The notes beneath the pieces are model-generated. The model ran no database searches. It was not told the DNA's origin and saw only the letters and a list, made by a program, of their open reading frames with translations. The position numbers were made by a program, and so were the translations under genes. From an uncultured Bacillales bacterium (GTDB taxonomy: Bacteria; Bacillota_I; Bacilli_A; RF39; UBA660), in the NCBI GenBank assembly GCA_946408655.1, contig CAMJTE010000001.1, positions 1-55,078 of the forward strand: DNA of 55,078 nt, written 5' to 3'. This document shows, in pieces, positions 3,898 through 34,610 of the stretch (positions within the stretch are counted from its first letter, which is position 1; the number at the start of each line of letters is the position of its first letter).

Positions 3898-5736
3898 TTA
3901 TTTATTATAATTGGGTCTATAAAATCCATTAATTCTTTGCTTAGAACTTGCGTCACTTCCACAATAATCTGAGGAATATGTTCCTTTCGAAACAACGTTA
4001 CCTTTATTACCTTCAACAGTATGTATAGTTCCATCTTCTTCTACTTCAACAACAAATCCAATATGACTACTTAAATATTGATCACGATCATTAAATCCAG
4101 AAATAGGTGGATAAGACTCGGTAGTTCTTAAAGGATATGGAATGTACAAGCCAGAATAACCATATTCTGGATCAAAAACAATTAAATCACCCGGACGCGG
4201 CTTAGTATTTTTATCATAACATTCATCTTCATACCAAGTTCCTAATCCTTTTTTTACCGATTCCCTTACTATTCCATCTGCTGTAGCATCTTTAACAACT
4301 AATCCTTTTGTCCTACTATCTTGATTAAATAACCACCAAATAAACGCAGCACACCAGTCAGCATCACGTCCTATTTTTATTTCATCTTGATATAATGTGC
4401 CTCCATTCCCTATTTCGCCTTTTGCAATATAAATTAATTTATTTATAATTTCATTTGAATTTGGACTAGAAGATTCATAATTATTTTTCTTTGTAGCACT
4501 TATATAACATTGAGTGCCATCCAAGTTACCTACACTACATTTATAATTGTTTTCTTCAACAGGTTTTATATAACATCCTAATCCAATTAAACTTCCTTTT
4601 TCACATTTATAGTTAGAATTTTTTCTTGCATTTATATAACATTTACCATTGTATAAATCACCAAGACCACATTTATAATTGTTTTTTATATATGCATCTA
4701 TATAACATTGAGTGCCATCAACATTTCCAACACTACATTTATAGTTGTTTTCTTTACTTGCATTTGTATAACATCGTGTACCGTCCAAGTTCCCAACACT
4801 ACATTTATAATTGTTTTTCTCAGTAGCTTTTATATAACATCGAGTACCTTTTAAATTTCCTATACTACATTTATAATTGTTTTCTTTACTTGCATTTGTA
4901 TAACATTGTGTACCGTCCAAATTCCCGACACTACATTTATAATTGTTATTTACAATTAAATCTTTGTAACACATTTTGCCTTTTTTATCTCCACCAGAAG
5001 AACAAACATATTGATTTGTTGTACCAACAATTTTCGATGCGCTTCTAACACATTGATTGCCTTTTTTATCCCAGCCTGTTGGGCATTTGTATGTTGGGGT
5101 ATTGGTTGCAATACGATAACATTTAGAACTATATAATTTCCAACCCTTTGGACAACTATATTTTGGAGTACTAGTTGCACTCCTGTAACAATTACCGCCT
5201 TCTTTTCTCCAACCATCTGGGCATTTATATGATGGATAATTTACTGCACTTCTATAGCACTTAGAGCCATATAAACTCCAGCCTCTTGGGCAACTATATT
5301 TTGGAGTATTAGTTGCACTCCTGTAACACTTTGTAGCATATCTCCTCCACCCACTTGGGCAATCATATTCAGGTGTATTGGTTGCATTTCTATAACATTT
5401 TTCACCTAATAATCTCCAACCCTTTATACAACTATATGTAGTAGTGCTAGTTGCACTTTTATAACATTGATTACCTTTTCTTATCCAACCAGTTGGACAA
5501 TTATATGTTAGATTATTAGTTGCACTTCGATAACACTTAGTTCCTTTTTTATTCCAACCATCAGGACAAGAATAACCATCGAAATCAGAGATTGAGTCGT
5601 TTTTTAATAAATTATAATTATTTAGAAAATAAAGTGCGCCAAGAAGGATAAAAAAACAAACAATAATTATAGCAGTTGCTTTTTTACGTTTTTTTCCATT
5701 ATTTTCCATTAAGACATGAACAACTTTTCTTTTCAT
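3898..5736 (-). CDS. Membrane-anchored or secreted cell-wall hydrolase: 16 two-Cys mini-repeats plus a C-terminal CHAP amidase/peptidase domain
   Basis: 612 aa. N-terminal basic and TM segment. Residues 55-419 are 22-23 aa repeats (Y-x-C-P-x-G-W-x3-G-x-x-C-Y, then Y-K-C-S-V-G-N-L-D-G-T-x-C-Y). CHAP motifs DWCAAFIWWLFNQ, GDLIVFD, SHIGFVVEV..HTVEGN. GGAG RBS 8 nt upstream. Confidence 0.8.
   Translation of the reverse strand: MKRKVVHVLMENNGKKRKKATAIIIVCFFILLGALYFLNNYNLLKNDSISDFDGYSCPDGWNKKGTKCYRSATNNLTYNCPTGWIRKGNQCYKSATSTTTYSCIKGWRLLGEKCYRNATNTPEYDCPSGWRRYATKCYRSATNTPKYSCPRGWSLYGSKCYRSAVNYPSYKCPDGWRKEGGNCYRSATSTPKYSCPKGWKLYSSKCYRIATNTPTYKCPTGWDKKGNQCVRSASKIVGTTNQYVCSSGGDKKGKMCYKDLIVNNNYKCSVGNLDGTQCYTNASKENNYKCSIGNLKGTRCYIKATEKNNYKCSVGNLDGTRCYTNASKENNYKCSVGNVDGTQCYIDAYIKNNYKCGLGDLYNGKCYINARKNSNYKCEKGSLIGLGCYIKPVEENNYKCSVGNLDGTQCYISATKKNNYESSSPNSNEIINKLIYIAKGEIGNGGTLYQDEIKIGRDADWCAAFIWWLFNQDSRTKGLVVKDATADGIVRESVKKGLGTWYEDECYDKNTKPRPGDLIVFDPEYGYSGLYIPYPLRTTESYPPISGFNDRDQYLSSHIGFVVEVEEDGTIHTVEGNKGNVVSKGTYSSDYCGSDASSKQRINGFYRPNYNK
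4480..5574 (-). repeat. In-frame coding tandem repeat array (66/69-bp period, 16 units)
   Basis: Repeat units were counted from the translation. Some DNA copies are near-identical: about 4745-4815 versus 4877-4947 differ at 3 positions. Confidence 0.85.
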
Positions 5737-5759
5737 ATATACTCCTACTTTCTAAAAAT

Positions 5760-5788
5760 ATAATAACACATAATAACTATAATATCAA
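5760..5788 (-). promoter_or_regulatory. Candidate sigma-A promoter of the repeat-CHAP gene
   Basis: Minus strand reads TTGATA, a 17-nt spacer, then TATTAT with TG at the extended -10 position. It lies about 25 nt upstream of the start codon. Confidence 0.45.
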
Positions 5789-5808: not shown

Positions 5809-6989
5809 CTCATTATTTGCAGAGAGTGCCTAATTAATGTATAATAATTGATATAGTTATACATTGATGAGCAACTGTGCAATTATGACGTGGTGGTCCT
5901 CTGCATAGTTGTTCATCAATGTAGAGAGGATCACCAAATATGAAAATTAGAAATAAAATTGATAACTCAAGGAGAAAAACTCCTTGGGATGATAATGCAT
6001 CACTTACTGCTACGCAAAAATTTATTAAAATAAAATATGAAGAAAATTATTGTTTTAAGCATCCCAATTTGTTATTAACAAAGGAATTTGAACTATTAAA
6101 CTCTATAAAAATAGATGAATGCCGAAGATGTGGAACTAAAAACATCAGAAAAAAAGGTTTCTCTAGAAATAATGTTCAAATGTATTACTGTAATGAATGT
6201 GAGCGACACTTTGAACCAACAACTAATACTATTTTTGAAGAGCACAAAATTTCAATAACGGAGTGGATAGAGTTTTTGCTTGACTTATTTAATTACGGAA
6301 GCACGTCATTAGTATCTAAGGTTAACAAGAATTGTATTAATACTTCCAGATATTGGTTAACGAAAACCTTCTTAGTATTAAAAGATTATCAGCAATCTAT
6401 TCTTTTAAAAGGCACAGTATATGTTGATGAATTTTACTATAAAGTTATACAAAGTAAAATTATAACTAAAGATGGTAAGCAACTTAGAGGATTATCGAAA
6501 AATCAATTTTGTATTGGTTTAGGCTATGATAAAGAAAATATTATTGCTATTCTTGAAGGTGTTGGAAAACCAAGCGAAAATAAAACAAAATTAGCTTTTA
6601 TAGATCATATAAAAACTAATTCAAAACTAATTCATGATGAAGAGAAAAGTCATAAAGTATTAATTGATGAACTTAATCTTACAGATGAATCATATAATTC
6701 TAATGATTTGAAAAAACTTGATGATAAAAATAATCCTTTACAACCAATAAATCATATTTGTGATTTATTAAGAAAGTTTTTAAACTCACATAGTGGATTT
6801 GATAGAGACAATTTACAAGATTATCTTAATCTATTCTGTTTTATGCATAACGGTTATAAAAGTAATTTGGAAAGAATTGATAAACTATTGAATATAGCTT
6901 TAAATAAAAAAGTAAGGTTAAAATATCGTGAAATGTTTAAAAAACGTGATAATGATTGAGGTTGTCAGGCACTTTCTGCAAATAATGAG
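5809..6989 (+). mobile_element. IS1595-family insertion sequence
   Basis: 22-bp terminal inverted repeats (5809-5830 ctcattatttgcagagagtgcc; 6968-6989 is its reverse complement with 1 mismatch). Flanked by a perfect 12-bp direct repeat tttattgtaaaa (5797-5808 and 6990-7001). Single transposase ORF. Confidence 0.8.
5940..6959 (+). CDS. IS1595-family DDE transposase with N-terminal zinc ribbon
   Basis: 339 aa. CRRCG..x17..CNECERHF zinc ribbon followed by TNTIFEEHKISITEW, then a DDE-type core (VYVDEFYY). RBS GAGAGGA upstream. Confidence 0.8.
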   Translation: MKIRNKIDNSRRKTPWDDNASLTATQKFIKIKYEENYCFKHPNLLLTKEFELLNSIKIDECRRCGTKNIRKKGFSRNNVQMYYCNECERHFEPTTNTIFEEHKISITEWIEFLLDLFNYGSTSLVSKVNKNCINTSRYWLTKTFLVLKDYQQSILLKGTVYVDEFYYKVIQSKIITKDGKQLRGLSKNQFCIGLGYDKENIIAILEGVGKPSENKTKLAFIDHIKTNSKLIHDEEKSHKVLIDELNLTDESYNSNDLKKLDDKNNPLQPINHICDLLRKFLNSHSGFDRDNLQDYLNLFCFMHNGYKSNLERIDKLLNIALNKKVRLKYREMFKKRDND

Positions 6990-7156: not shown

Positions 7157-9304
7157 TCACTCACTAAAGAAGTCATCAAAGAATTGATCATCTGTTACTC
7201 CACCATTCTGTTTTTCTTTTGTACTAGACTTATCAGGAGTAATAACTTCTTCGATATCAGCATCAATAACTTTTTTAGAATCATCCACACTCTTTTTTTC
7301 GTCAGATTTATTCTCAGATTTTTGTTCTTGTTCTTTTCTTTCTTCTTCTTCAAGTTCGGCAATTTTAGCATCTATTCTTTTTACCATTTCATCAATATTA
7401 AATGAATTATTATTAGGTTTTGATGATCCACCACCAAAAGGATTTGCACCCATTCCACCTAGTCCTGAAGGCATTCCATTCATTCCAGGAAGTCCAGGTA
7501 ATCCTGGTAGTCCTCCCGGCATCCCACCAAATCCACCAAGTGGTAATCCTCCACCAGTAGGATTAGGGCCACCGGAACCTAACATATTATTTATTTTATC
7601 TTCTCTTTTCTTTTCTACAAAACCTTTTAAATCAAAAACCTTCACAGGTAATTTTTCATGAACAGGATAAGTTGCCTTAGGATAATTAACTCCCCAATCC
7701 ATCTTAAAATTAGGTGTTAGTTTTGTTTTAAATGGCATCATACGAATTCTAAGAACAATAGTTTCCCACATTTTCATACGTTGTAAGTCACTTACAGTAA
7801 CTAACGGAGTTGATGAGGTTTTCTCTTTTTCCTTAGATTTAACTTCACCACACATTTTACTAATCTCTTCAAGTGCAGAAAGTTCAGAACTAATTAAATA
7901 AATAATATTACCACAGTTACCTTTTATAGTCTCTCCATTTTCTTTACCATAAACTTCATAAAGCTGAGCAAAGTTCTGAATAATAAAAGTAAATCTAATA
8001 TTTCTTGAACGAGCTGCAGTAACCATTGTAGTAACATCTTTTAAAGGAGGCATATTAGCAAACTCATCTAGAATAAAGTTAGTTCTATGAGGTAATTTTC
8101 CTCCACTTTCTTGTGCAACAGAAATCAACGTTTCATAACATTGCTTTAGAAATATTGTAACTAATGCATGATAAGTTTTCTTTTCATCTTGAATAACTAT
8201 AAATACAGCTGTTTTCTTTCTACCAATATCACGCATATCGAAGTCATTATGCGCAAGCATTTCAGATAAGTTTTCACGAGAAGCAAACAACTTTATTTTT
8301 TGTTTAAATACTGATAGTATACTTCCTCTAGTTTCATTCGGAGCCATAATTGTTGAAGATGCATTAACATATGCAGGACTAGCAGGATCTTTATAACTAA
8401 AATATTCATTAACATACTTAGTATTACCTATTTTTTCTTCACCAACAGTAGTCATCAAGTTAATACTATTTAAATTTATTTCATCTTCCGCGGCATCTTC
8501 AAACAATCCTAATGATAAACCAGCAAAATAGTCTGCAGAAGTGTTTTCCCAGAATGGATCTTGCCCTTTAGATGATTCATCATAAAGTATATTTTTAGCA
8601 AGGTCATCTAATAACTCATTAGCCTTATCTTGATTACCATTTTGATAAAACGAATATGGTAAACTCATCGGATTCCAAGAATTACCTTGTTGTGGGTCAC
8701 GAAAGTTTAAAAGAACTATGTTATAACCTAAGTCTCTTAACATCTCAGATGTATCTTCAAAAATTTCACCCTTTGGGTCTGTTATAATCATTGATTCATC
8801 ATGCTTACAAAGCAATTGTACCATAGGAAGTACAGTAGTCTGTGTTTTACCTGCACCAGTAGAACCAATAACTAGATTATGGTATCCTCCATCATCAACC
8901 CAAGCTTCCTTTTCATTCATTATGATAGGAATACCAGCAGCATCATTATGTTTAGCCTTAGGATCAACTTTTTTTAATTCCTCTTTCATCTCTTTATCTT
9001 TAGCCCAACGAGAATAGTTTTTTTCTTTTTTAGCACCCACTTCAATTCCAACGCCACTACTTCTTTCAAATATATATGATTTAACACTTATTAAACCAAT
9101 AATTATTCCAATAAAGAACCCTACAATGGTCATTGAAAACATAATTCCATTAGTAAATACTAAGAATATATTTGCAGTAAATGGTTCTTCCTCGACAAAT
9201 GCATTAATATTTACAACTAAAAGTTGTACAACAATAAGCCAAACAAAAGAAAAAATACAGAAAATCAATAAATCTTTAGGCTCGACTCTTAATCTTAGTT
9301 TCAT
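7157..9304 (-). CDS. Type IV coupling protein (VirD4/TraG/TcpA-like)
   Basis: 715 aa. Two N-terminal TM helices. Walker A GSTGAGKTQT, TDPKGE, Walker B-like NFILDEFANMPP. C-terminal Gly/Pro/Met-rich low-complexity segment and acidic-aromatic tail. GGAGG RBS. Confidence 0.85.
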   Translation of the reverse strand: MKLRLRVEPKDLLIFCIFSFVWLIVVQLLVVNINAFVEEEPFTANIFLVFTNGIMFSMTIVGFFIGIIIGLISVKSYIFERSSGVGIEVGAKKEKNYSRWAKDKEMKEELKKVDPKAKHNDAAGIPIIMNEKEAWVDDGGYHNLVIGSTGAGKTQTTVLPMVQLLCKHDESMIITDPKGEIFEDTSEMLRDLGYNIVLLNFRDPQQGNSWNPMSLPYSFYQNGNQDKANELLDDLAKNILYDESSKGQDPFWENTSADYFAGLSLGLFEDAAEDEINLNSINLMTTVGEEKIGNTKYVNEYFSYKDPASPAYVNASSTIMAPNETRGSILSVFKQKIKLFASRENLSEMLAHNDFDMRDIGRKKTAVFIVIQDEKKTYHALVTIFLKQCYETLISVAQESGGKLPHRTNFILDEFANMPPLKDVTTMVTAARSRNIRFTFIIQNFAQLYEVYGKENGETIKGNCGNIIYLISSELSALEEISKMCGEVKSKEKEKTSSTPLVTVSDLQRMKMWETIVLRIRMMPFKTKLTPNFKMDWGVNYPKATYPVHEKLPVKVFDLKGFVEKKREDKINNMLGSGGPNPTGGGLPLGGFGGMPGGLPGLPGLPGMNGMPSGLGGMGANPFGGGSSKPNNNSFNIDEMVKRIDAKIAELEEEERKEQEQKSENKSDEKKSVDDSKKVIDADIEEVITPDKSSTKEKQNGGVTDDQFFDDFFSE

Positions 9305-9315: not shown

Positions 9316-9762
9316 CTATCTAAAATCAACAGTATAGTTCATTACACCATTAGATTTAAATGTTACACGATTATTATTTCCATCAATAATAGAATAATAT
9401 GTATATTTACCCTTCTTATAATAATTTAATTTAGTAACTTTTGTACTAGATAAATCCATTTTACTTACATAACTTTTAAATTCTTCTATCGTATATAATT
9501 GTTTCATACTGTCTTTTTCAAATTTTGCGTAAGCCTTTTCAACATCAATGTGTATTAAGTTATAATAATTACTTAAATATATTGATGCCTGTTTATCAGC
9601 AGTTATGTAAGAACTATTATAAACATTATAATCATTTTTAGCAATACTACTTACTATTTTTTTATTATGAATTGTCATATATAGTACAACATCTAATCCA
9701 ACTAATACAACAACAACAAGCAAGATGATAGAATAATCTCTTTTACTTAATTCAAAATCCAT
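9316..9762 (-). CDS. Small N-terminally anchored protein of unknown function (possible VirB8/TcpC-like scaffold)
   Basis: 148 aa. One TM helix then a ~110-aa beta-rich domain. GGAGG RBS. The VirB8-like idea rests only on size, topology and position. Confidence 0.35.
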   Translation of the reverse strand: MDFELSKRDYSIILLVVVVLVGLDVVLYMTIHNKKIVSSIAKNDYNVYNSSYITADKQASIYLSNYYNLIHIDVEKAYAKFEKDSMKQLYTIEEFKSYVSKMDLSSTKVTKLNYYKKGKYTYYSIIDGNNNRVTFKSNGVMNYTVDFR

Positions 9763-10256
9763 TGTTCTACCTCCTTAAATGTTTTACCATTATCAGGAAC
9801 AATTGCAAAAGAACTATTTTTATTATCAACTAATACAATAATATAATAATCGCTAACTGTTTCATAACTATCCATTGAATTTTTTTCTATCATACCATAC
9901 ACATAAAATTTATTAATATTTTTACTAATTTTTTCATAATACATCTTTTCACCTACAAAAGATATATTGCTATCAGAATATTTATTAACATATTTAAAAA
10001 TATTACTTATATTAATTCTCTTTTGTGAAACATAGTTACCATCTAGTAATTTAATAATACTTTCTTTATTACTATCATTAGAATAATGAACAAATTTATT
10101 TACTATTCCCACAACATCATAATACTGAGTACTATTATCAACAATTTTTACATTTGAATAATCTTTTTTTTCATCATTATTAATCAAAATATATATAGTA
10201 GATACAATAAACATAAAAGCAATTATAAATAAAATATCCTTTAAATATATCTTCAT
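9747..10256 (-). CDS. Small N-terminally anchored protein of unknown function (possible VirB8/TcpC-like scaffold)
   Basis: 169 aa. One TM helix plus a ~140-aa extracytoplasmic domain. GGAGG RBS. Overlaps the next gene by 16 nt. Confidence 0.35.
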   Translation of the reverse strand: MKIYLKDILFIIAFMFIVSTIYILINNDEKKDYSNVKIVDNSTQYYDVVGIVNKFVHYSNDSNKESIIKLLDGNYVSQKRINISNIFKYVNKYSDSNISFVGEKMYYEKISKNINKFYVYGMIEKNSMDSYETVSDYYIIVLVDNKNSSFAIVPDNGKTFKEVEQWILN

Positions 10257-10265
10257 ATTTTCCTC

Positions 10266-11621
10266 CTAGTAATAGTGAATTGTACCTCCAAATCCTTTTG
10301 CGGTTTCTTCAACAATTTTAGCTAATTTAGATTTTTCATCATTTGGTACATTAAAATTACCTATACATTCTATATTTCCATCATCACTTTGTTGATCATG
10401 TGTTGTATATATTCCTGATGTAAATACCAACCATTCTGATTTTCTTCTTTTTATTAATCCCGGCCAAGTTATGCCATTACCATGAACATATTCACAAAAT
10501 GATTGAAATAATTTATATGTATATCCATATTTCTTGTAACCATCAATGACATTATATGTAAAACCAGCTCCACCATTATATTCACTCGACGTTAAAGCAA
10601 GAATTTGATTATTATTTAAGGTTACTCCGTTATCACTTAAAATTTTTTCAACAGATTTTCTATGTAGTTGCATTGCATAGAGATATACCCTATCTATATC
10701 TGCCTTAGGAACCCTAGAACCAACATATATTTGTGATGGATCAACGCCAGCAAGCCTAAATGCTTCAACTTCATGTGGTGTTATTCCAGGACCTATTGTC
10801 CAAACAACCCCATCTCCGCCATCATAAGCAACATAATACTCTCCTTCTTCAACACCACCTTCAAAATATCTAACCCAGTCTAATAATTCTTGTGGAATAA
10901 AACAATCATCTTCACTTGTGCCGCCTGGACCACTAGGCCTAGAATTTTCAGGATCTATATAATTTAAAGGATCGACTCTCGCCCCAAATTCATCTTGACC
11001 TTCTCTAACCTCAAAATGTAGATGTGTACCAGTTGAATGACCACTTGAACCAACTTTACCTATAACTTGTCCTTGTACAACCTTATCCCCAGCATTAACC
11101 TTAATAGTATTCTGATGAAGGTGTCCATAATATTGATAATTACCATCATTTGATTTAATAACAATGTGATTTCCATAAGAACCGCCACAACTATAATCTC
11201 CAAAAGAAACACATCCATTATAAGCTGATATAACTTCTCCAGATTGGGCAGCAATTACATTTACAACTCCAGCATCAGCTGCAGGAGCAATATCAAGACC
11301 ACCATGTCCATAATCATGAATCCCTGCCTCTGTTGCACCAAACGTTGATGATATATATACTGTATTAGGTTCTCCAGTAGCCATTTCTACTCCTTTTTCA
11401 TTGGTTACTTGATCGCTTCCAATAGGCCACATATATGACTTACTCCCACCACAGGCATCAGAATAACCCGAATCAGATCCACTATCTACTGGATATAAAT
11501 CATCAAAAAACTCTTTATAATCATATATATCTTGTCTTTCAAGTTCATACTCAGCAAAAATAATTGTAGGTATAATTAGCATTGTAATAATAAATAATAT
11601 ATATTTTTTCAAACTAATCAC
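10266..11621 (-). CDS. Bifunctional peptidoglycan hydrolase: M23/LytM metallopeptidase plus phage-type lysozyme domain
   Basis: 451 aa. Signal peptide. M23 motifs HGGLDI and GHSTGTHLHFEV. C-terminal lysozyme-like motifs (WVRYFEG, TIGPGIT, EYNGGAG, GLIKRRKSEW). The start is non-ATG: GTG at 11621, or TTG at 11612 preceded by AGGTGA. Confidence 0.8.
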   Translation of the reverse strand: MISLKKYILFIITMLIIPTIIFAEYELERQDIYDYKEFFDDLYPVDSGSDSGYSDACGGSKSYMWPIGSDQVTNEKGVEMATGEPNTVYISSTFGATEAGIHDYGHGGLDIAPAADAGVVNVIAAQSGEVISAYNGCVSFGDYSCGGSYGNHIVIKSNDGNYQYYGHLHQNTIKVNAGDKVVQGQVIGKVGSSGHSTGTHLHFEVREGQDEFGARVDPLNYIDPENSRPSGPGGTSEDDCFIPQELLDWVRYFEGGVEEGEYYVAYDGGDGVVWTIGPGITPHEVEAFRLAGVDPSQIYVGSRVPKADIDRVYLYAMQLHRKSVEKILSDNGVTLNNNQILALTSSEYNGGAGFTYNVIDGYKKYGYTYKLFQSFCEYVHGNGITWPGLIKRRKSEWLVFTSGIYTTHDQQSDDGNIECIGNFNVPNDEKSKLAKIVEETAKGFGGTIHYY

Positions 11622-11629
11622 CTCACAAC

Positions 11630-12271: not shown

Positions 12272-12282
12272 ATTTCACCACA

Positions 12283-13566: not shown

Positions 13567-13578
13567 AATTCCTCACTT

Positions 13579-19545: not shown

Positions 19546-19559
19546 GCATGAAGCTTGCT
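19534..19559 (-). terminator. Intrinsic terminator (probably partial) after the fourth VirB2-like gene
   Basis: Minus strand reads agcaagc-ttcat-gcttgtt, a 7-bp stem that includes one G-U pair. It is followed by a T-rich run. Confidence 0.5.
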
Positions 19560-23855: not shown

Positions 23856-23869
23856 GCGTCACCTCCTAA

Positions 23870-26877: not shown

Positions 26878-26898
26878 TATATCACCAGAATTAATTTT

Positions 26899-26944
26899 AC
26901 ACTAAATGACACACTTTATCAACGGTTAATGTGTCATTTAGTGT
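26899..26944. promoter_or_regulatory. Inverted repeat upstream of abiEi (candidate operator)
   Basis: 15-bp perfect arms acactaaatgacaca / tgtgtcatttagtgt separated by 16 nt. It sits 22 nt upstream of the abiEi start. Confidence 0.5.
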
Positions 26945-27009
26945 ATTTGGTATGTTTGTGATTTTAATTTTTGTATTTTTTTATTAATTGTACTTAAAAT
27001 CGCAACAAT

Positions 27010-27900
27010 CTATACCAACTCATATCTTCTTGCAATTATTCTCTCATCAGAACAATATTCAATTACACAACTATTTTCTTTCTTACAAATAATAATACCT
27101 ACTGTTTTATTATCATCAAGTTCTTTTACATTCTTATCTATATAATTCATATAGTTTTGTATTTGTCCTGTATGTTTAGAATTTATTTCAGTTACTTTTA
27201 ATTCAATAACTACATAACATCTAAATTTAATATTATAAAGTAGGATGTCAATATAATTATATCTATCTTTAAGTTTTATAGGATATTCACTCCCAATAAA
27301 AATAAATGAATTACCTAACTCTTTCATAAACGACTGTATATCCTCTAATATTAATTTTTGTAATACTTTTTCTGATATATCATCAAGGTTATTACTATTT
27401 CTAATACGTATAGGATTTTTAACAAAATCTACTATAGCAGTTTTTTTCTTAGTAATAAGTTTATTTTTAGAATCATCAGGTAACCTTTCATATTCATTTG
27501 ACTTTATTCTAGTTCTTAACTGTCTAACTGATAAGTTTTGTTGTTCGCATATTTTTATATAATATATAACTTTCTTAATATCATCGAATCTTAAAATTTC
27601 ATCATAGTGACTCCAAGATAATTTTGCCGACAGTGTCGGCAATTTTCCTTTTGAAATAAAATTATAATATTTTAGCATTTTATATAATAATCTAGCACTA
27701 TAACTTTTTCCTAAATCATTTTGCAACTTATGTGAGTATTCTTTTATAATCCCATCACCATAATGCTTACCTGCATCCATCAGCATTTTTCCAACATTAT
27801 AATAAGTATTTAAATCACTTTTATTAATTGAATAATTTTTTGCTCTTTTGTTTATTTCATTATTAATTAATTCATTCTTTATCTCATTATAATAATTCAT
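27010..27900 (-). CDS. PDDEXK nuclease-fold protein, YhcG/DUF1016 family
   Basis: 296 aa. LSWSHYDEILR motif. C-terminal FIGSEYPIKL..YIDILLYNIKFRCYVVIELKV..TGQIQNYMNY restriction-endonuclease-like core. Confidence 0.75.
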   Translation of the reverse strand: MNYYNEIKNELINNEINKRAKNYSINKSDLNTYYNVGKMLMDAGKHYGDGIIKEYSHKLQNDLGKSYSARLLYKMLKYYNFISKGKLPTLSAKLSWSHYDEILRFDDIKKVIYYIKICEQQNLSVRQLRTRIKSNEYERLPDDSKNKLITKKKTAIVDFVKNPIRIRNSNNLDDISEKVLQKLILEDIQSFMKELGNSFIFIGSEYPIKLKDRYNYIDILLYNIKFRCYVVIELKVTEINSKHTGQIQNYMNYIDKNVKELDDNKTVGIIICKKENSCVIEYCSDERIIARRYELV

Positions 27901-28001: not shown

Positions 28002-28793
28002 TTATATCATGAGAGTCATTGACATGAAAAGCAACATCATTACTCCTCCACCTGTTGCGAATAACATTACCATGGTTTTCTTTTCCATCTTATCTAATCT
28101 TTCTTGATACTTTATTTCTCTTGCTTTATTTTGTAGTGTTGATACCATACGAGAGAATGCCATTACTTGTTCTTGTTTATTATCTTGTGAACCAAGACTT
28201 AATCTATATAATAGTCTCATCATTCTCATTGAATCTCTTACTGGGTATTCTTCTGCAAAATCTGTATATGGTTTTATTGATGAATCTCCAGAATCAATTT
28301 TAGCGACTAATTTTAAAAGTCCTCTTTTAAATACTTCTGGTGCGGTTTCTATGCTTCTTGATAAAGCAATAGGAACTGTATAGTGTTGAACAAGTATTTC
28401 TAGTCCTTTTAAATAGTATGGTAATAATAAATCTATAGTATGCAAATGCGCTTTATACATTCTCTTTAGTTTTGCATATGGCATTTTAAATACTAATAGA
28501 GCAAGTACTACAGCAAGAAATATAACGATAAAGGCAAATTTACCTGCTAGTATTGATAAGAATAATACTATTAGAAATGTTAATACTGCATTTCTAATTC
28601 TTTTTTCAAACATTTCTTCTAGATCTATATCTTCATCTTCATATCTTAATCTTACTAAGAATTCATAATCATCTTCTCCTATATTTCTAAATATAGGAGA
28701 TAATTCTTTAATAAATTTATTACCATCAAATACTTTATTATATATAAATATAAATACTAAAGTAGCAGTAACTAATACATATATTAATCCCAT
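28002..28793 (-). CDS. TadC-like pilus platform protein (T2SSF-type)
   Basis: 263 aa. N-terminal TM, a central TM pair, a ~120-aa cytoplasmic helical domain and a C-terminal TM. The topology and pairing with the upstream paralog match TadB/TadC. Confidence 0.6.
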   Translation of the reverse strand: MGLIYVLVTATLVFIFIYNKVFDGNKFIKELSPIFRNIGEDDYEFLVRLRYEDEDIDLEEMFEKRIRNAVLTFLIVLFLSILAGKFAFIVIFLAVVLALLVFKMPYAKLKRMYKAHLHTIDLLLPYYLKGLEILVQHYTVPIALSRSIETAPEVFKRGLLKLVAKIDSGDSSIKPYTDFAEEYPVRDSMRMMRLLYRLSLGSQDNKQEQVMAFSRMVSTLQNKAREIKYQERLDKMEKKTMVMLFATGGGVMMLLFMSMTLMI

Positions 28794-29692
28794 TATTCTG
28801 CACCTACATTCTCATTATAATATTTTTCTCCACTTAGCAAGAAATATGAATTCATAAATACTAATAAATGTATGAGTAATTTTAAATACCACATAGATAA
28901 TAGTTGTGAATAAGTGTCTCCTAATAACAACTGTATTAAAGCAATCATACCATAAAGCATAATACCAAATCTAATAAATTTCTTATGGAAGTTTGCTCTA
29001 TCTATTCTATCCCTATATACAGCCTCTACTAGCATATCTATATCAAGACTCATATTTTCTAGAGATTCTTGTGAATCTTTCGCACCTTCATTAGTTATTT
29101 GTAAGAATAACTGATGCATATTTTTAACCATGTAATAATCATACTTGTTTTGAAAATACTCAAGTGATTGATTAATAGTTCCATTTTTATAAGCTAAATC
29201 TATCATTACTTTAACATCGCTTTTTACCGGATCTTCTAATACACCTGATTCATATACACCTTCTAAAGATTTAACAAATGACTGGGATGTTTGAAAATCC
29301 AAGATAATATTTGTTGTATATGTTTGTACTTGTTCAAAGATAAATTCACTATATAACCTTTTGCATCTTAAGTATTCTAAGTATGGAATAAAAGCTATAG
29401 CTATACCTGCATATATTATCGCAACTACTATATCATAAAAATATAAAAATCCCATCGCACCTGCAATACCACCAAAGATAACTATTTGTCTTAAATAATC
29501 TTTAAATTTGTAGTTTTGACCTAACTGTCTTATTTTTACTCTAATCTCTTTATAAGTATAAGGTGCGATTTTATCATATACTGGGCCTAAACTTCCAGTA
29601 ATCTCTTTATATACATCTTTACCACCAGTACTTCTATAAAAAACTATAAACAATAGTATTACACCTACTAGTAAAAATATTATCTGTATCAT
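28793..29692 (-). CDS. TadB-like pilus platform protein (T2SSF-type)
   Basis: Start reassigned to MIQIIFLL at 29692, where AGGAGGTG lies 5 nt upstream (track start 29710). Same TM/cytoplasmic-domain/TM topology as TadB. Confidence 0.6.
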   Translation of the reverse strand: MIQIIFLLVGVILLFIVFYRSTGGKDVYKEITGSLGPVYDKIAPYTYKEIRVKIRQLGQNYKFKDYLRQIVIFGGIAGAMGFLYFYDIVVAIIYAGIAIAFIPYLEYLRCKRLYSEFIFEQVQTYTTNIILDFQTSQSFVKSLEGVYESGVLEDPVKSDVKVMIDLAYKNGTINQSLEYFQNKYDYYMVKNMHQLFLQITNEGAKDSQESLENMSLDIDMLVEAVYRDRIDRANFHKKFIRFGIMLYGMIALIQLLLGDTYSQLLSMWYLKLLIHLLVFMNSYFLLSGEKYYNENVGAE

Positions 29693-29702
29693 ATCGCACC
29701 TC

Positions 29703-30818
29703 CTATTCAAAAATTATTTGATTATTATTAATTGTTGAATTTACACTTTCTGTATTATTGTCATCTGTTGGAATAATAATATTCCTGTCCATTCTAACTC
29801 CTTGAGCTTCCAAATAATCAAATAAATACTTACTTGGATTTTTTCTAGTAATATGTCCATCTGGAGTCTTTCTATAAATAGTATTATACTTAGCCTCATT
29901 ATCTTCAGTTACATAAAACTCTGTTACTTCTGCAATTTCTCTTATCATTCTATGTGTAGTAGCATCTTGATAAGCACGAATATATACACCTAGTTGAATA
30001 TATCTATAAATAGATTTTAAGAATTGATCTATATCTTGATTAGTCTCAAGTAATGAATACATTCTGTTTGGTATAGATGCAGCCTTATCAGCATGTATTG
30101 TCGATAAAATGTAATGTCCAGATGATATTGAGTTTCTAACCGCCATTACAGCTTCTGCACTTCTTACCTCTGATAGTAATATCCATTTAGGATTCTGTCT
30201 CATACAAGTAACAAGAACATCTGAATAACTAGCAATGTTATTTGTCTTCATAGCTACTATATCTCGTTCTGGAAATATTCTATCAAGATGGAGTTCTAGA
30301 GTATCTTCAATTGTAATAATTTTCTCATCTACTTTAGTATTGGCAGCTAAATACTTAATAAATTCAGTCTTACCACTACCAGTTTCTCCACATACCATAA
30401 TATTAGTATGACCGTGCACACATTGTATTAAAAAGTTAAGAATATCTTCAGTAATATATTTTTCCTGTATTATTTTATTTCTCTCTAACCTTATTTTAGC
30501 TGGTGTCTTTCTTATAACACATGCAATACCATTTCTAGCTATTGAGTCGTGAACAAAATTAATACGAAGTTGTTCTGATTCACTATCCAAAAAAGGATGA
30601 GCTGCATTGAAACTTCTACCTACTACATTCGCACATTGAAAAGCTAGCTTGTCCATAAAATTATCATCAATACCAGGATTATTTACTCTAAATGTACCAT
30701 GGGATAATGTTCTAAGCCAAAGTTGTCCACCGTTATCATAAGATATATCTGTAACATCATCGTTATCTAGGTATTGCTGTAAAGGTCCAAAGTCCATTTC
30801 ATCAAAAACATTATCCAC
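29703..30818 (-). CDS. TadA/CpaF-type secretion ATPase (T2SSE/VirB11 superfamily)
   Basis: 371 aa. Walker A GETGSGKTE, Asp box ITIEDTLEL, Walker B ILLSEVRSAEA, His box STIHA. GTG start preceded by GAGGTG. Confidence 0.85.
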   Translation of the reverse strand: MDNVFDEMDFGPLQQYLDNDDVTDISYDNGGQLWLRTLSHGTFRVNNPGIDDNFMDKLAFQCANVVGRSFNAAHPFLDSESEQLRINFVHDSIARNGIACVIRKTPAKIRLERNKIIQEKYITEDILNFLIQCVHGHTNIMVCGETGSGKTEFIKYLAANTKVDEKIITIEDTLELHLDRIFPERDIVAMKTNNIASYSDVLVTCMRQNPKWILLSEVRSAEAVMAVRNSISSGHYILSTIHADKAASIPNRMYSLLETNQDIDQFLKSIYRYIQLGVYIRAYQDATTHRMIREIAEVTEFYVTEDNEAKYNTIYRKTPDGHITRKNPSKYLFDYLEAQGVRMDRNIIIPTDDNNTESVNSTINNNQIIFE

Positions 30819-30852: not shown

Positions 30853-31719
30853 TTATCCAACTAGATTTCTACTATTATTTGTTGTATTTGTTGTATCAGT
30901 AGTATTAGTTGTAGTTTCACTATTTTGTGCTTTTACAAATTCTTCAACTGCTTCATCACTAACTGTACTTGTTGCATTATTTATATAGTCTTGTAATGTT
31001 TTACTGCTAACAAGTGTTCCTGCTTTAGAAACGTATTTTTGTCCTTTAGGTTCTATAACTAAATCAATTCCTTGTCCTTTTAAATATTCAGCACGTTTTA
31101 ATAATTTATAATTATCACGTGATAATCCAAATGCTAAATATGATGGACTACCAATATTAGCAGGATCGGCAAAAACGTTATGTCCTGCATTATCATGTAC
31201 AGCAAGTACTTTTATACTACTAAATAATTTACCATACATAATATTACCATTAGCATCACGAGCTGACATATATATATCTATATGTGAATCAGGAAGTATT
31301 GAGTTACCAAAAGTTGATACCATATCAACCTTGTAGTAATATGCTTCTTCTCCTTTAGATATATCTATCTTTTCAATCCAATTACCTGGAATTGAATCTT
31401 CAGTAGCTAACCATTCTGCATAAATCATTGAACCTGCAGGTATAGTTACATTAATATTAGTATACTTACCTACTATTAAAGATGCATTTCTAACTACATT
31501 TTCTGTAAGTCCTACTTTCGATATTTTCTTAATCTGTAACATATCACCTGTAATCTTAGTTTGTGCAGGAATTGTTTTTTTGGCAACCGGTATACTTACT
31601 GGATTTACTGTTTGATTAATCGTTACATTAAACCCAATAAATAGCAAAAATACTATTAATATAATTCCTAATATAGTTACTGTATTTTTATTTCTTAAAA
31701 ATTTACTTAATCCTCTCAT
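30853..31719 (-). CDS. CpaB/RcpC-like Flp pilus assembly protein
   Basis: Start reassigned to MRGLSKF at 31719, where AAGGAG lies 5 nt upstream. N-terminal TM, SAF-like segment (IPAQTKITGDMLQIKKI...IPAGSMIY), RcpC-like segment (DIYMSA...IKVLAV). Thr/Asn-rich tail. Confidence 0.7.
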   Translation of the reverse strand: MRGLSKFLRNKNTVTILGIILIVFLLFIGFNVTINQTVNPVSIPVAKKTIPAQTKITGDMLQIKKISKVGLTENVVRNASLIVGKYTNINVTIPAGSMIYAEWLATEDSIPGNWIEKIDISKGEEAYYYKVDMVSTFGNSILPDSHIDIYMSARDANGNIMYGKLFSSIKVLAVHDNAGHNVFADPANIGSPSYLAFGLSRDNYKLLKRAEYLKGQGIDLVIEPKGQKYVSKAGTLVSSKTLQDYINNATSTVSDEAVEEFVKAQNSETTTNTTDTTNTTNNSRNLVG

Positions 31720-31730
31720 ATTAACTCCTT

Positions 31731-32123
31731 TCAATTCTTAGTTTCTAATATAGCATCTACTTTATTAACTAGATCAAATTTTAATACATCACTAGTTCCT
31801 TTTTCAGTAGAAGATACTTTAATACTTACCTTAGGTGGTTCTTCATTAATATCATATATATCTATTTGATAATTTCTAGATAAAGATGCATTTTCCGCAA
31901 ATCTTCTTAAAAATATTTCAATAAATTTATCTTTATCTATTTTTACAATTCCATTTTCTAGTGATTCTTTATCTACTGCATCATACATTGCAGCCTCAGT
32001 AGTTTCCCGAAGAAGTGTGTAATTATGTTGATCAGCAGTAGAAACACGTTGCATAAAGAAGATAAATACTATCGCAATTATCCCAAACATTATTATGAAA
32101 TATGCCCAAATCGAATCTTTCAT
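31731..32123 (-). CDS. Small N-terminally anchored protein (possible minor pilin or TadE/G-like)
   Basis: 130 aa. MKDSIW then a hydrophobic helix. Its start abuts the stop of the upstream 828-aa gene. Confidence 0.35.
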   Translation of the reverse strand: MKDSIWAYFIIMFGIIAIVFIFFMQRVSTADQHNYTLLRETTEAAMYDAVDKESLENGIVKIDKDKFIEIFLRRFAENASLSRNYQIDIYDINEEPPKVSIKVSSTEKGTSDVLKFDLVNKVDAILETKN

Positions 32124-34610
32124 CTAGTCCCCCTTCTTCCAAACATTGTCAAGGTCACATATACCATTAGTTGTAACACTAGATTTACATAAACCACCAA
32201 TATTATTTTCCTTAATATATGTATTAATAAACTCATTAATAGAACTACTAGAAGATGAGTATCCGCCTTGATTTTTATTATATTCTCTAATATTTTTAAT
32301 ATCGGATGGTTCTAATTTAATACTATATAACGGCCCATCAACACTCTTTTCAACATTATTAGCAGTCATATATTTACCATTTGCATTAGGTCTTTGCTTT
32401 ATATACTTTTGAATTCTAAAATTGTTTGCGCCACATCCGTTATTATTATCTGCATCTGAAGTTTTATCTTCATAACTTACAGTTATACCTTCAGAAGCAG
32501 ACTCTCCATATAATGATGCAATCATCTGTTGTACTAAAGTAGCATCATTTGTATCAACATTACCATTTGAATCTACATCCGCACAATTTAAACTAATCTT
32601 CATTCCTTGAAAATTATTAGCATCTACAGCGCCACTTCCCCCAGCAGCCTGAATTTTTTGAATTAAAACCACATCTTCATCATCTAAATTTCCATTTCCA
32701 TTAACATCTCCAAGAAGTTGACAAATTTCTTTATTGGCTTCTGCTTCTTCATCACCAGTTTCACACCAGTTAAAGCCAGTATCTCTTTCCTCACCATAAT
32801 ACTTAACAAAAGGTTTATCGTAATTTATAGTTCTATATAAGTACTCAACATCCCCATTTACAACACCATATTTACATTCTGTATTTCGACCATTTTCACC
32901 AAAACTTACATTTTTAAACACTGTATCAGTTAAATCAAAATCAATATGAGATTTATTATTATTTGATACCTCGGCATCATTAGGGACTGTAAAACCATTC
33001 ATACTGTCAGGGTATTTATATTGAACTTTTGCAACAAATCCCCAACCAAAACCTTTTTTAACATCATTAGTATAATTATTACATAAAACGTTCCCATTAC
33101 TTTTTCTACATAAATTACTATCATTATAATTCTCAATTTTTGTAATACTACCATTAATTGTTATTTCATTATTTCCTACTTTCATCTTTAACTTCGGCGT
33201 AATTAAACTGCTATGTATTTCTTTTTCCGCTGCTTTAGGATTATTATATAATATAGGTACATTGCAATCATAAACAACCGTTGCCTCACCAATTACACCA
33301 TTATCAACTTTATATATTTTTCCGCCTTTTTTTGTATATTTATCTTTTACAGCATTGTTTTCAAATGAAAATCTAGCAGAACAATATGCATTAAATTTAC
33401 CAGATTCAATTTCTAAATTATTATCAATCCAACTATATGAAATATCTGTTTTATCACAATCAATCTTTCCTGGATTATTAGATATATATCCACAACTTGT
33501 ATCATTAATATCTAAAAGTTTCTCACCATAATCATTATTCCCTGAATGATTTATATATAATTCTGCATTAGAAACTGGATTATCTGTAATTTGTTGTTCA
33601 CATGGTTTAGATGTATCATTAATATTAAATACACCATTCCATTCTACTGGTGATAAATTATATGTACCTTCCATTAACATATTTGGCACAATCGATTGAT
33701 ATTTAGTCGTATATTCTTTACCACATGCATATCTTTTCGATTTATAAGTTTTTGCAGTATTATTAATACTTATTTCTATATAATTATTTACTCCTAAAGA
33801 TTCATTAATGTTATTAGAAATATCTGCAGTAATTAATGCAGTCCCATCATTATTTTTATCAACATTATAATTTATTGAATTCTTATGATTTTCATCACCA
33901 ACAGATATATTATTTACCGTTGCATCATCACAATTTTTATCAGAACAGTTTAACAAAATTTTAAGTTGATAATTAGACGATTGAGATTTATTTATAGAAG
34001 TATTTTGTGTTCCTATAACAACATTATTAACCTTAATATTTTTTATTTTTATTGTACTCTCCTTGCTTGAGTACTTATTATAATAATCTTCAATTTTTTT
34101 TCGATATGTCTCACTTATCGATAGATTAGGTTCGTGGAAAACAGCATGATTTGATGAATTACGAATATTATTTACATCTTCATGATAGTGCTGATAGAGA
34201 AAATCATTTATAGCCATTTCCCCATAAAAATAGTCTCTTTCACTTATTCCGTTTTCTCCACGCAAATCATATATAAAATGCCCTATACTTGCACTCACTA
34301 TTTCGTTTTCCGTATCATTATTTTTAACCCAAGGTTCTGACTCACATCCTAAGTAATACCATGGAACTTTATATCCCCACTCAGTACAAAAAGCACGTCC
34401 AGAAATTGTTTCATTTCCAACCTTAGCTTCATATGTTTTATTAACAATTCGATCTGGATAAATAGTAATTCCTGAATAATCAGAGCTTTTATTATAGTCA
34501 TAATATCTTTTAAGCTGTAATTTTTCTGGAAAATAACTAACCGCATATACATCTATTCCATATATAATTGTTACAATTGCAATTATCAATAATCCGTATT
34601 TCCTTTTCAT
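32124..34610 (-). CDS. Large secreted protein with an internal dockerin-type Ca-binding module (candidate adhesin or pilus-associated protein)
   Basis: 828 aa. Signal peptide ending DVYA. Asn/Cys-rich extracellular region. Duplicated DxNxNGxxDxxD-helix segments near the C-terminus. First gene of the Tad operon. Confidence 0.6.
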   Translation of the reverse strand: MKRKYGLLIIAIVTIIYGIDVYAVSYFPEKLQLKRYYDYNKSSDYSGITIYPDRIVNKTYEAKVGNETISGRAFCTEWGYKVPWYYLGCESEPWVKNNDTENEIVSASIGHFIYDLRGENGISERDYFYGEMAINDFLYQHYHEDVNNIRNSSNHAVFHEPNLSISETYRKKIEDYYNKYSSKESTIKIKNIKVNNVVIGTQNTSINKSQSSNYQLKILLNCSDKNCDDATVNNISVGDENHKNSINYNVDKNNDGTALITADISNNINESLGVNNYIEISINNTAKTYKSKRYACGKEYTTKYQSIVPNMLMEGTYNLSPVEWNGVFNINDTSKPCEQQITDNPVSNAELYINHSGNNDYGEKLLDINDTSCGYISNNPGKIDCDKTDISYSWIDNNLEIESGKFNAYCSARFSFENNAVKDKYTKKGGKIYKVDNGVIGEATVVYDCNVPILYNNPKAAEKEIHSSLITPKLKMKVGNNEITINGSITKIENYNDSNLCRKSNGNVLCNNYTNDVKKGFGWGFVAKVQYKYPDSMNGFTVPNDAEVSNNNKSHIDFDLTDTVFKNVSFGENGRNTECKYGVVNGDVEYLYRTINYDKPFVKYYGEERDTGFNWCETGDEEAEANKEICQLLGDVNGNGNLDDEDVVLIQKIQAAGGSGAVDANNFQGMKISLNCADVDSNGNVDTNDATLVQQMIASLYGESASEGITVSYEDKTSDADNNNGCGANNFRIQKYIKQRPNANGKYMTANNVEKSVDGPLYSIKLEPSDIKNIREYNKNQGGYSSSSSSINEFINTYIKENNIGGLCKSSVTTNGICDLDNVWKKGD
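32514..32711 (-). other. Dockerin type I-like duplicated EF-hand module inside the 828-aa protein
   Basis: GDVNGNGNLDDEDVVLIQKIQ, a spacer, then ADVDSNGNVDTNDATLVQQMIAS. Confidence 0.7.

Follow-up and report, generated by a model that had tools for sequence, protein, structure and literature searches.

The conjugation machinery of the pLS20 plasmid family has been described as encoding neither pilus components nor a VirB2 homologue, with p37 recognised as a homologue of VirB11 and with p36 and p38–p45 listed as proteins of unknown function (PMC8557374). Patescibacteria (candidate phyla radiation, CPR), e.g., Southlakia epibionticum, carry a chromosomal type IV secretion system (T4SS) related to the MPF_FATA class, usually without a relaxase and with TrsD, PrgI and VirB6; its VirB2-like pilins come in arrays of 2–11 divergent members, and downstream of virB4 Southlakia has genes for a peptidase and a lysozyme (PMC12102498; PMC12857230). 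A review of December 2025 counts Patescibacteria as the only monoderms whose T4SS has VirB2-like pilins and serves as a host organelle, not a mobile-element function. Here we analyze a block of genes at positions 3898 to 34610 of a 55,078-nucleotide stretch of DNA (the whole of which is hereafter referred to as the window; assembly GCA_946408655.1, contig CAMJTE010000001.1) from an uncultured bacterium of the lineage RF39, in which a Tad-like type IV filament module and a T4SS with a VirD4-type coupling protein lie side by side. RF39 bacteria are prevalent in the gut, have reduced genomes and have so far not been cultured.

The composite gene set itself is not new; what appears to be new is a domesticated machine of the pLS20/pBMB67 type in a gut lineage of the Bacilli, analogous to the T4SS of Patescibacteria. 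We read the block as a domesticated chromosomal conjugation machine for contact-dependent transfer, with DNA as the favoured substrate, and consider the chances of this reading to be about even. The Tad-like module appears, from the comparisons given below, to be an integral partner of the T4SS and not a later addition. A literature search found no paper tying RF39 to a T4SS or a Tad system.

The gene block and its plasmid relatives

Read along the direction of transcription (from 34610 downward), the block opens with an 828-aa secreted protein, a DUF5411 protein, a CpaB/RcpC-like protein, a T2SSE ATPase and two polytopic membrane proteins, and continues past an insert of YhcG and AbiEii/AbiEi genes with Flp-sized proteins of 66 and 74 aa, two pseudopilin-like proteins of 170 aa and a 294-aa degenerate P-loop protein. 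Three T4SS_pilin-like proteins, a 370-aa Cys-rich protein, a fourth T4SS_pilin-like protein, TrbL/VirB6, a 107-aa membrane protein, a 200-aa protein resembling the VirB4 N-terminus and VirB4 itself come next, and the block closes with two CHAP proteins, a lipoprotein, an M23+lysozyme protein, two small anchored proteins, a VirD4 of the CD1115 family, an IS1595-like gene on the opposite strand and a further CHAP protein (Table 1). The G+C content of the window is approximately 27%, with no sharp contrast between the block and its flanks, and the minus strand holds nearly all genes across 334–34610. The left flank consists of rnr, rmuC and rhodanese genes and the right flank of scpA and scpB (Pfam and NCBIfam).

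Searches with hidden Markov models (HMMs), covering the main open reading frames (ORFs) along the window for Pfam and 20 ORFs of the cluster for NCBIfam, bore out both these flanks and the gene inventory that an earlier sequence-only reading had drawn up for the 31-kb block, with some members below threshold: VirD4, VirB4, TrbL/VirB6, the CHAP and M23/lysozyme proteins, the T2SSE ATPase and the CpaB/RcpC-like protein were confirmed, while the VirB2-, VirB3-, TadB-, TadC- and TadZ-like proteins are sub-threshold. Two further statements of that reading fell away, namely that all genes are co-oriented (the IS1595-like transposase at 5940–6959 lies on the plus strand) and that the 828-aa protein bears a dockerin, a Pfam match which reaches 21.2 bits against a cutoff of 22.9 and is not established.

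Table 1. Coordinates of the features in and around the block, listed along the direction of transcription of the block, with the evidence for each assignment
Feature	Coordinates	Strand	Evidence
Large secreted Cys-rich surface protein, 828 aa	32124..34610	-	Signal peptide
DUF5411 protein, short prepilin-like leader MKDSIW..	31731..32123	-	Pfam E 1.1e-45
CpaB/RcpC-like pilus assembly protein	30853..31734	-	TIGR03177 E 1.9e-11, below cutoff; weak SAF and RcpC Pfam matches
CpaF/TadA-type secretion ATPase, intact Walker A GETGSGKT	29703..30818	-	Pfam T2SSE E 3.8e-26
TadB-like platform protein	28793..29710	-	hhalign 87.3% to pLS20 p38 family; 81% to pBMB68 neighbour
TadC-like platform protein	28002..28793	-	hhalign 96.9%, E 1.6e-10, to pLS20 p39 family
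YhcG PD-(D/E)XK nuclease	27010-27900	-	Pfam
AbiEii toxin and putative AbiEi partner	25517-26877	-	Pfam for AbiEii; AbiEi by position only, no family match
Flp-sized pilin, 66 aa, leader MKEATG then hydrophobic helix	24686..24886	-	Sequence and leader motif
Second Flp-sized pilin, 74 aa	24386..24610	-	Sequence and leader motif
Two pseudopilin-like paralogs, 170 aa each, leaders MKESTG and MKDAVG	23343..24382	-	Mutual hhalign 100%
TadZ/CpaE-like protein, 294 aa, degenerate Walker A; weak assignment	22446..23330	-	P-loop-region similarity
Three VirB2-like T4SS pilin paralogs, 155, 135 and 146 aa	21109..22436	-	Weak PF18895 matches
Conserved Cys-rich putative surface lipoprotein inside pilin array, 370 aa	20018..21130	-	Invariant Cys, lipobox-like GC
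Candidate major VirB2-like pilin, 130 aa	19566..19958	-	Promoter and conservation
VirB6/TrbL-like channel protein, long C-terminal extension	17462..19462	-	PF19597 (TrbL_4) 34.1 bits, cutoff 27
VirB3/PrgI-like membrane protein, 107 aa	17118..17441	-	hhalign 92.4% to PrgI/DUF5592 of four plasmids
TrsD-like protein, 200 aa, separate gene for VirB4 N-terminal domain homologue	16601..17203	-	NCBIfam VirB4_plasma positions 103-276, E 9.4e-13
VirB4 ATPase, intact Walker A GTSGSGKS	14817..16604	-	Pfam AAA_10 and P-loop_TraG
Whole cell-wall module, between virB4 and virD4	9316..14799	-	
Transmembrane-anchored CHAP protein	13579-14799	-	Pfam
Secreted CHAP protein	12283-13566	-	Pfam
Lipoprotein, 213-aa family, lipobox-like motif	11630-12271	-	
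M23+lysozyme protein	10266-11621	-	Pfam
Two small transmembrane-anchored proteins	9747-10256 and 9316-9762	-	
VirD4-type coupling protein, CD1115 family, intact Walker A GSTGAGKT	7157..9304	-	NCBIfam NF045973 304.8 bits, cutoff 250
IS1595-like transposase, not a machine part	5940..6959	+	NCBIfam E 1.2e-16, below cutoff
Membrane-anchored CHAP protein, 612 aa, lineage-specific accessory	3898..5736	-	Pfam CHAP
Large serine recombinase, defence island	45652-47298		

The T4SS part holds the VirB4, CD1115-family VirD4, VirB6, PrgI, TrsD-like and cell-wall hydrolase genes of an MPF_FATA system of the pLS20/pBMB67 type, and the Walker A motif is intact in all three ATPases of the block (VirD4, VirB4 and the T2SSE ATPase). 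In Pfam, VirD4 matches T4SS-DNA_transf and TraG-D_C, and in NCBIfam VirB4 matches two VirB4 families (E 4.6e-102 and 3e-51), both under their equivalog cutoffs. VirB4 has more than 7000 homologues, of which the top 120 clusters are 84–98% identical, and its length is 594–595 aa in all of these clusters except four (546–597 aa). Since these lengths are nearly uniform, the division of VirB4 over two genes is a conserved arrangement; the "split VirB4" of the sequence-only reading matches the TrsD-plus-VirB4 layout of pGO1-type and Patescibacteria systems (PMC12102498). The smaller of the two genes, encoding the TrsD-like protein, has 28% identity (tblastn E 4e-16) to the ORF upstream of virB4 on pBMB68 and reaches 67% by hhalign with the TrsD-like family of the plasmids.

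For the Tad-like module, family alignments from RF39 were compared by hhalign with alignments of four plasmids; alignments of three plasmids gave weak signals, which became clear once pBMB68 was added. Besides the matches in Table 1, the DUF5411 protein reaches 92.3% with the pLS20 p36 family, of which it is a homologue; p36 itself matches Pfam DUF5411 weakly. The CpaB-like protein reaches 99.7% with the SAF/RcpC protein of pBMB68, and the pseudopilin-like pair 80% and 67% with the DUF4320 family (pLS20 p40). The comparison is specific in that the TadB-like protein reaches only 2.4% with the TadC type; the TadC-like protein also has tblastn matches in the plasmid loci L083 and L085. The solved structures nearest to the Tad-type ATPase are CpaF (69.9 bits over query residues 2–258, i.e., the N-terminal and core domains), followed by FlaI and then VirB11 (55 bits, core only), and the NCBIfam scores, ambiguous and both sub-cutoff, are 109 bits for VirB11 and 96 bits for the TadA type. 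By these similarities the T2SSE ATPase appears to be nearest to CpaF and of the TadA/CpaF type. The TadB-like protein, whose actual start probably lies at 29692 (for a length of 299 aa), has no Pfam match (T2SSF included) and no PDB sequence match by profile search; its AlphaFold model (models were built from alignments of database homologues) has a predicted local distance difference test score (pLDDT) of 66, with PilC and EpsF as the top four Foldseek matches (E 0.85–2). A short class-III-like leader followed by a hydrophobic helix is seen in five protein families, and the leader M-[KR]-[ED]-[AS]-x-G with such a helix is common to the Flp-like, pseudopilin and DUF5411 proteins of related loci (mostly MKESFWG in DUF5411). 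The TadZ-like protein, conserved in 65 of 81 loci, matches nothing in Pfam, NCBIfam or the PDB.

The module therefore resembles Tad/Flp (type IVc) systems in its CpaF-like ATPase, CpaB/RcpC-like protein, two platform-like proteins, pilins of 66–74 aa, two pseudopilins and possible TadZ. It differs from them in having no Pfam T2SSF, Flp or TadE matches (the Flp-sized proteins included), a leader M[KR][ED][AS]xG with Glu at +1, DUF5411 and DUF4320 proteins in place of TadE/F, and no prepilin peptidase nearby.

It had been proposed from the sequence that the block joins two machineries that are normally separate. This does not hold, as the same composite, in nearly the same order, is found on the relaxase-bearing plasmids of the pLS20 family, pBMB68, pZB18 and a Paraclostridium plasmid. 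Among plasmids, the ATPase, VirD4 and VirB4 find their best matches (23–32% identity) on Bacillus plasmids of the pLS20 family, pBMB67/68-type plasmids of B. thuringiensis, and enterococcal, lactococcal and clostridial plasmids, and tblastn ties the VirD4, VirB4, TrsD-like, CpaB, TadB-like and TadC-like proteins of the window directly to these plasmids. The plasmid maps run from an adhesin, a protein of about 125 aa, a CpaF/VirB11-family ATPase, two membrane proteins, DUF4320 and small hydrophobic proteins to VirD4, an extended VirB6, DUF5592, a protein of about 190 aa, VirB4, a VirB8-like protein and a hydrolase, with the relaxase further along. On pBMB68 of B. thuringiensis the order is MobP3 relaxase, VirD4, TrbL, PrgI, a 227-aa protein, VirB4 and an NlpC/P60 protein, followed a few genes further by DUF5411, SAF/RcpC, a ParA-like AAA_31 protein, a T2SS/T4P ATPase, two membrane proteins and DUF4320. 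A VirB2-like pilin (T4SS_pilin or TrbC) is present on three of the four plasmids, none being recognised on pBMB68: the pLS20-type 78-aa protein and its Paraclostridium counterpart are above the Pfam T4SS_pilin cutoff, and the pZB18 protein (E. faecium) scores 53.7 bits with TrbC/VirB2 (coordinates 14977–15213 in locus L082, 23941–24168 in L083 and 23458–23736 in L084). The Tad-like and pilin nature of this segment of pLS20 is not spelled out in the pLS20-family paper (PMC8557374). Taken together, these maps suggest that the association of Tad and T4SS parts is ancestral to this whole class of Gram-positive conjugation systems.

The block nonetheless differs from the plasmids, to which its sequence identity is only 20–32%. 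The plasmids carry MobP-type relaxases, replication and partition genes and surface exclusion or regulation genes, all of which are missing from the block, itself found at a fixed position on the chromosome; VirD4 is at the distal end of the operon in RF39 and upstream of VirB6 on the plasmids; and the block has four VirB2-like paralogs and a lipoprotein where the plasmids have one pilin. Other known systems are less alike. The best NCBIfam match of VirB4 is the VirB4 of a Mycoplasma integrative and conjugative element (ICE) (Mbov_0397; 342 bits, below cutoff), and the VirB6-like protein weakly matches the Mycoplasma ICE family MMCAP2_0566; both hosts belong to the Bacilli/Mollicutes radiation, but these matches are under the family cutoffs (590 and 90), and the Mycoplasma ICEs are mobile, have no hydrolases as their hosts are wall-less, and have no described Tad-like module. 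In the IncI plasmid R64 and the PAPI-1 island a type IV filament also works with a T4SS in conjugation; these are diderm systems with separate clusters for the two parts, a type IVb pilus and a relaxase.

Conservation at a fixed chromosomal site

Relatives of the block were recovered by two scans, one with the Tad-type ATPase against a collection of one genome per species (555 confirmed stretches) and one with VirD4 against metagenome contigs (540 confirmed stretches), and the best-matching 80 of the approximately 550 stretches in each were examined; the VirD4 scan gave 47 recovered loci of at least 9 kb. Nearly all of the best 80 of the ATPase scan are metagenome-assembled genomes (MAGs) labelled uncultured Bacilli, Tenericutes, Mollicutes or similar, a minority having other labels, and the sole classified locus belongs to Candidatus Fimihabitans, a genus assigned to the GTDB order RF39. 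Wherever the DNA reaches far enough in the loci of the ATPase scan, the Tad-like genes are followed downstream by the pseudopilins, the 294-aa protein, the pilin paralogs, VirB6, the VirB3-like and TrsD-like proteins and VirB4, and scpAB is on the other side of the Tad-like genes in 28 loci. Among the 47 loci of the VirD4 scan, VirB4 is upstream in 41 and VirB6 in 35, and downstream there is a rhodanese gene in 33, often followed by rmuC (24) and rnr (18). The order in 16 mapped loci is VirB6, VirB3-like, TrsD-like, VirB4, one large hydrolase, one or two lipoproteins of about 220 aa, and VirD4.

Median identities to the window, computed with close relatives excluded, are 79% for VirB4, 77% for the Tad-type ATPase, 64% for VirD4, 63% for rnr, 62% for the TadB-like protein, 57% for scpA and 55% for scpB, while the surface parts (pilins, pseudopilins, the 370-aa protein and VirB6) diverge fast, with medians of 28–53%. 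The higher medians of the motor ATPases mean that these are under stronger constraint than the neighbouring housekeeping genes. Judged by these comparisons, the block is under purifying selection and has been inherited vertically at a fixed chromosomal site between scpAB and rhodanese-rmuC-rnr in the recovered loci that reach the flanks.

The co-occurrence of the two halves also bears on whether they might be chance neighbours, i.e., a Tad-like adhesion pilus beside an independent T4SS. They are together in all long-enough loci except one, which agrees with the sequence-only reading in that the adjacency is not accidental. The exception is locus L065 (JAQVKM010000002.1, 12900–21119), where the Tad core (DUF5411 to TadC-like) gives way to housekeeping genes unrelated to the machine (pcrA- and ligA-like), with neither pilins nor T4SS. 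A second point in favour of chance is the region between the TadC-like and pseudopilin genes, where the window carries the AbiE/YhcG insert (25517..27900) and the relatives L027 and L051 carry other inserted genes. Because relatives carry different insertions there, the region is an insertion hot spot and likely an operon boundary, which fits two transcription units. We nevertheless regard chance adjacency as very unlikely, as the parts lie together in every other long-enough locus, at least four plasmid families, which come from different orders, have both in a single operon, and the Flp-like, pseudopilin and TadZ-like genes are on the T4SS side of the junction, beside the VirB2-like genes. 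The AbiE/YhcG insert itself is strain- or clade-specific and outside the machine, with AbiE present in 3 of 80 loci and YhcG in none of 80.

The same comparisons bear on mobility. No relaxase family matches any searched ORF of the window, no Rep protein was detected among these ORFs, and no recombinase apart from the insertion sequence (IS) transposase was recognised in the block, the only recombinase of the window being a serine recombinase in a separate defence island; for the block, the Pfam and NCBIfam searches thus agree with the earlier observation that relaxase, integrase and prepilin peptidase are missing. In the 16 mapped relatives there is likewise no conserved relaxase-sized gene from VirB4 to rhodanese (ORFs without a match were not searched with relaxase HMMs). 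The block accordingly has neither the linked relaxase of conjugative MPF_FATA systems nor the border integrase and variable site of an ICE. An active ICE whose relaxase, oriT and integrase are outside the block or of an unrecognised type would be compatible with the intact T4SS parts, which include a bona fide coupling protein, with the Mycoplasma ICE families as best NCBIfam matches of VirB4 and VirB6, and with the serine recombinase 11 kb away. We find it extremely improbable, as it is largely refuted by synteny: the same genes flank the block in the recovered loci reaching them, the block has diverged about as much as its housekeeping neighbours, G+C content is not sharply different from the flanks, and the recombinase (45652–47298), which we ruled out as an integrase of the block, belongs to the defence island past scpAB, bacA and a tRNA methyltransferase gene. 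The related option of the sequence-only reading, a conjugative element with its processing module elsewhere, finds no support for the same reasons, namely the single fixed chromosomal position and divergence in step with the housekeeping neighbours.

Pilins, surface proteins, cell-wall enzymes and insertions

The four VirB2-like paralogs share 38–46% identity and show VirB2 topology, with a charged loop between two hydrophobic helices. PF18895 is matched weakly by three of the four and by 28 of 54 members of the family alignment (best E 1.4e-6). All of the paralogs conserve a Cys just ahead of helix 1 and, past helix 2, a motif with Cys that often reads CxNCF. This terminal Cys pair may form a disulfide linking the N- and C-terminus, an arrangement which recalls the head-to-tail cyclisation of TrbC and VirB2.

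The 130-aa pilin is the most conserved paralog (median identity 53%), and upstream of its gene there is a perfect sigma-70 consensus (TTGACA-17-TATAAT, 20011–19983), with a terminator-like hairpin 3' of the gene at 19559–19541. Its orthologues have a promoter-like site of at least 11 of 12 positions in 47 of 59 related loci. The 66-aa Flp-like pilin also has its own promoter-like site (24944–24916, 11 of 12 positions, with an extended -10), and its orthologues reach at least 10 of 12 in 49 of 61 loci, where control genes in the same scoring average approximately 8.4 of 12. Such conserved near-consensus promoter-like sites are what would be expected of abundant filament subunits.

Within the pilin array, the 370-aa protein gives a confident AlphaFold model (pLDDT 91.5; predicted template modelling score, pTM, 0.84) without a match in the PDB (best E 0.78), and PDB profile searches with the 370-aa and 213-aa families gave no significant match. 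A few distant homologues of the 370-aa protein carry PF19789. We considered it as a VirB8/TcpC-like component and ruled this out, since the confident model is not NTF2-like and matches nothing in the PDB.

At the start of the cluster, the 828-aa protein is matched in 3 of 80 loci, with an identity of only 26–28%, and its C-terminus resembles the large secreted proteins of L051. It is a variable member of a family whose C-terminal module is conserved. In the plasmid loci L082–L084 its position is held by adhesin, thioester or SpaA-type proteins. The cluster of most relatives starts with two extra conserved genes, one for a membrane protein (about 525 aa, beginning MILRKPYAF..) and one for a secreted protein (about 218 aa), which in L051 lie at 1129–3364, upstream of DUF5411. 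Neither has a Pfam match, and both are missing from the window and its closest relatives.

Where the window has the cell-wall module of Table 1, relatives have one multidomain hydrolase of 640–1012 aa and one or two lipoproteins of approximately 220 aa. The 612-aa CHAP protein at the distal end of the block has about eight tandem Cys repeats (C-P-x-G-W...C-Y-R-S-A-T) between its anchor and the CHAP domain, and tblastn matches it in only 2 of the 47 VirD4-centred loci (L086, 51%; L093, 26%). All of the peptidoglycan hydrolases bear an N-terminal signal peptide or membrane anchor, and for this reason they look like Sec-exported wall openers of the VirB1 type and are unlikely to be toxins delivered by VirD4. 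This also speaks against the idea that the block is a contact-dependent killing system delivering peptidoglycan hydrolases or other toxins to competitors. Such a system would account for several fast-diversifying hydrolases between virB4 and virD4, for the extra CHAP protein with Cys repeats and for the presence of VirD4. On the other hand, the enzymes combine the domains (M23, lysozyme/SLT-like, CHAP) seen in VirB1-type wall openers from Gram-positive T4SSs, in most relatives there is just one multidomain enzyme, and cognate immunity genes were not recognised, though no search was aimed at them. We judge a killing function to be decidedly improbable.

The IS1595-like transposase between VirD4 and the 612-aa CHAP gene is missing from the closest relative, L086, and is a recent insertion. 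To the right of the block, a 395-aa ORF (36206–37393, plus strand) without a Pfam match adjoins scpB. The integrated defence island at 41214–54634 contains, besides the serine recombinase, RhuM, a protein with three LysM domains, Bro-N, HTH_36, a 792-aa Mrr_cat+nSTAND3 protein, AAA_21 with an OLD-type TOPRIM, GmrSD_N+HNH, an EcoRI-type adenine methylase and T5orf172.

What the machine may do in RF39

In the proposed mechanism, the CpaF-type ATPase, the TadB/C-like platform, CpaB and the DUF5411 protein would polymerise the Flp-like pilins and pseudopilins into a Tad-like filament, which would find or pull in a partner cell and make or tighten the contact. Sec-exported CHAP, M23 and lysozyme enzymes would then open the wall for an envelope conduit made of VirB4 with TrsD, VirB3, VirB6 and the VirB2-like pilin assembly, into which VirD4 would load a cytoplasmic substrate. 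In the last and least secure step, this substrate would be DNA, so that chromosomal exchange would take place without a relaxase encoded in the cluster. DNA is favoured because all close functional relatives are DNA conjugation systems and the coupling protein has been kept in the operon.

Several observations weigh against this reading or against parts of it. With regard to the substrate, Patescibacteria need their T4SS to grow as epibionts, though not for DNA uptake (PMC12857230), which weakens the case for DNA. The relaxase negative in relatives rests on 21-kb loci, and other parts of the genome may encode a relaxase or a non-canonical nickase. Among the filament components, the Flp-like proteins do not have the canonical G/XXXXEY motif and have the leader MKEA[AT]G followed by E-A/G-x-M-T, no prepilin peptidase (TadV/CpaA, A24) matches any searched ORF of the window, the fold match of the TadB-like protein to PilC/EpsF is not significant, and the TadZ-like protein aligns weakly with the AAA_31 protein of pBMB68, over just 46 columns around the P-loop. 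On the T4SS side, the pilin family is linked weakly to the plasmid pilins (hhalign 33% with the four-plasmid alignment) and finds no match with the single pLS20 p45 sequence, and the VirB8-like candidate, a 169-aa protein, compares weakly with the VirB8-like proteins of the plasmids (hhalign E 9e-4, probability 22%). To these may be added the Tad core without a T4SS in L065 and the fact that all genomes involved are uncultured MAGs.

The cargo is also where the comparison with Patescibacteria matters most, as their T4SS is the closest described analogue of the RF39 block. Common to both are a chromosomal location, wide conservation in a reduced-genome lineage, the lack of a relaxase (in the block here, and usually in Patescibacteria), a relation to MPF_FATA systems, TrsD with VirB4, PrgI/VirB3, VirB6 and an array of divergent VirB2-like pilins, which a non-pilin gene interrupts here and sometimes in Patescibacteria. 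The two differ in that Patescibacteria are not Bacilli, that Tad is absent from the text of the Patescibacteria study (PMC12102498), and that the RF39 block has VirD4 in the operon and a joined Tad-like module. Since the host belongs to the Bacilli, the RF39 VirB4 is unlikely to lie within the Patescibacteria clade by descent; a position as sister to that clade is possible.

From this analogy follows an alternative function, in which the block would be a partner organelle of the Patescibacteria type: the filament would attach to another bacterium, and the T4SS with its pilin array would exchange proteins, signals or metabolites needed for growth, with no DNA as cargo. We consider this a serious rival, possible though rather unlikely. 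The features match closely, down to the M23/lysozyme genes downstream of virB4, and one related MAG is a circular contig of 1.20 Mb (JBAMOY010000001.1). Moreover, the system is kept in the recovered relatives with ATPases more constrained than housekeeping genes, while the large surface proteins and pilins are variable, as partner recognition would predict. An epibiont lifestyle of RF39, however, has no support, and VirD4, which is in the operon and well conserved here, is seldom linked with virB4 in Patescibacteria and proved dispensable in the single species where this was tested.

Whether its cargo is DNA, as in the domesticated conjugation machine that we favour, or something else, the block has consequences beyond RF39. 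What has been overlooked in pLS20, pBMB67 and pZB18 is that the "VirB11" segment of the operon is a Tad-like filament module, and that pLS20 and pZB18 also encode a VirB2-like pilin. The block points to a second monoderm lineage, common in human and animal guts, with a conjugation-derived machine as a core chromosomal trait. We offer, as a speculation that is rather doubtful at present, that RF39 depends on physical contact with other bacteria and that the Tad-plus-T4SS organelle is its device for contact and transfer. If true, this would be a second case of the Patescibacteria strategy, independent or evolutionarily connected, in the Bacilli and with a type IV filament module in the same locus. 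In either event, the block gives a testable handle on why RF39 resists cultivation, by allowing one to ask whether a partner organism or gene exchange is involved.

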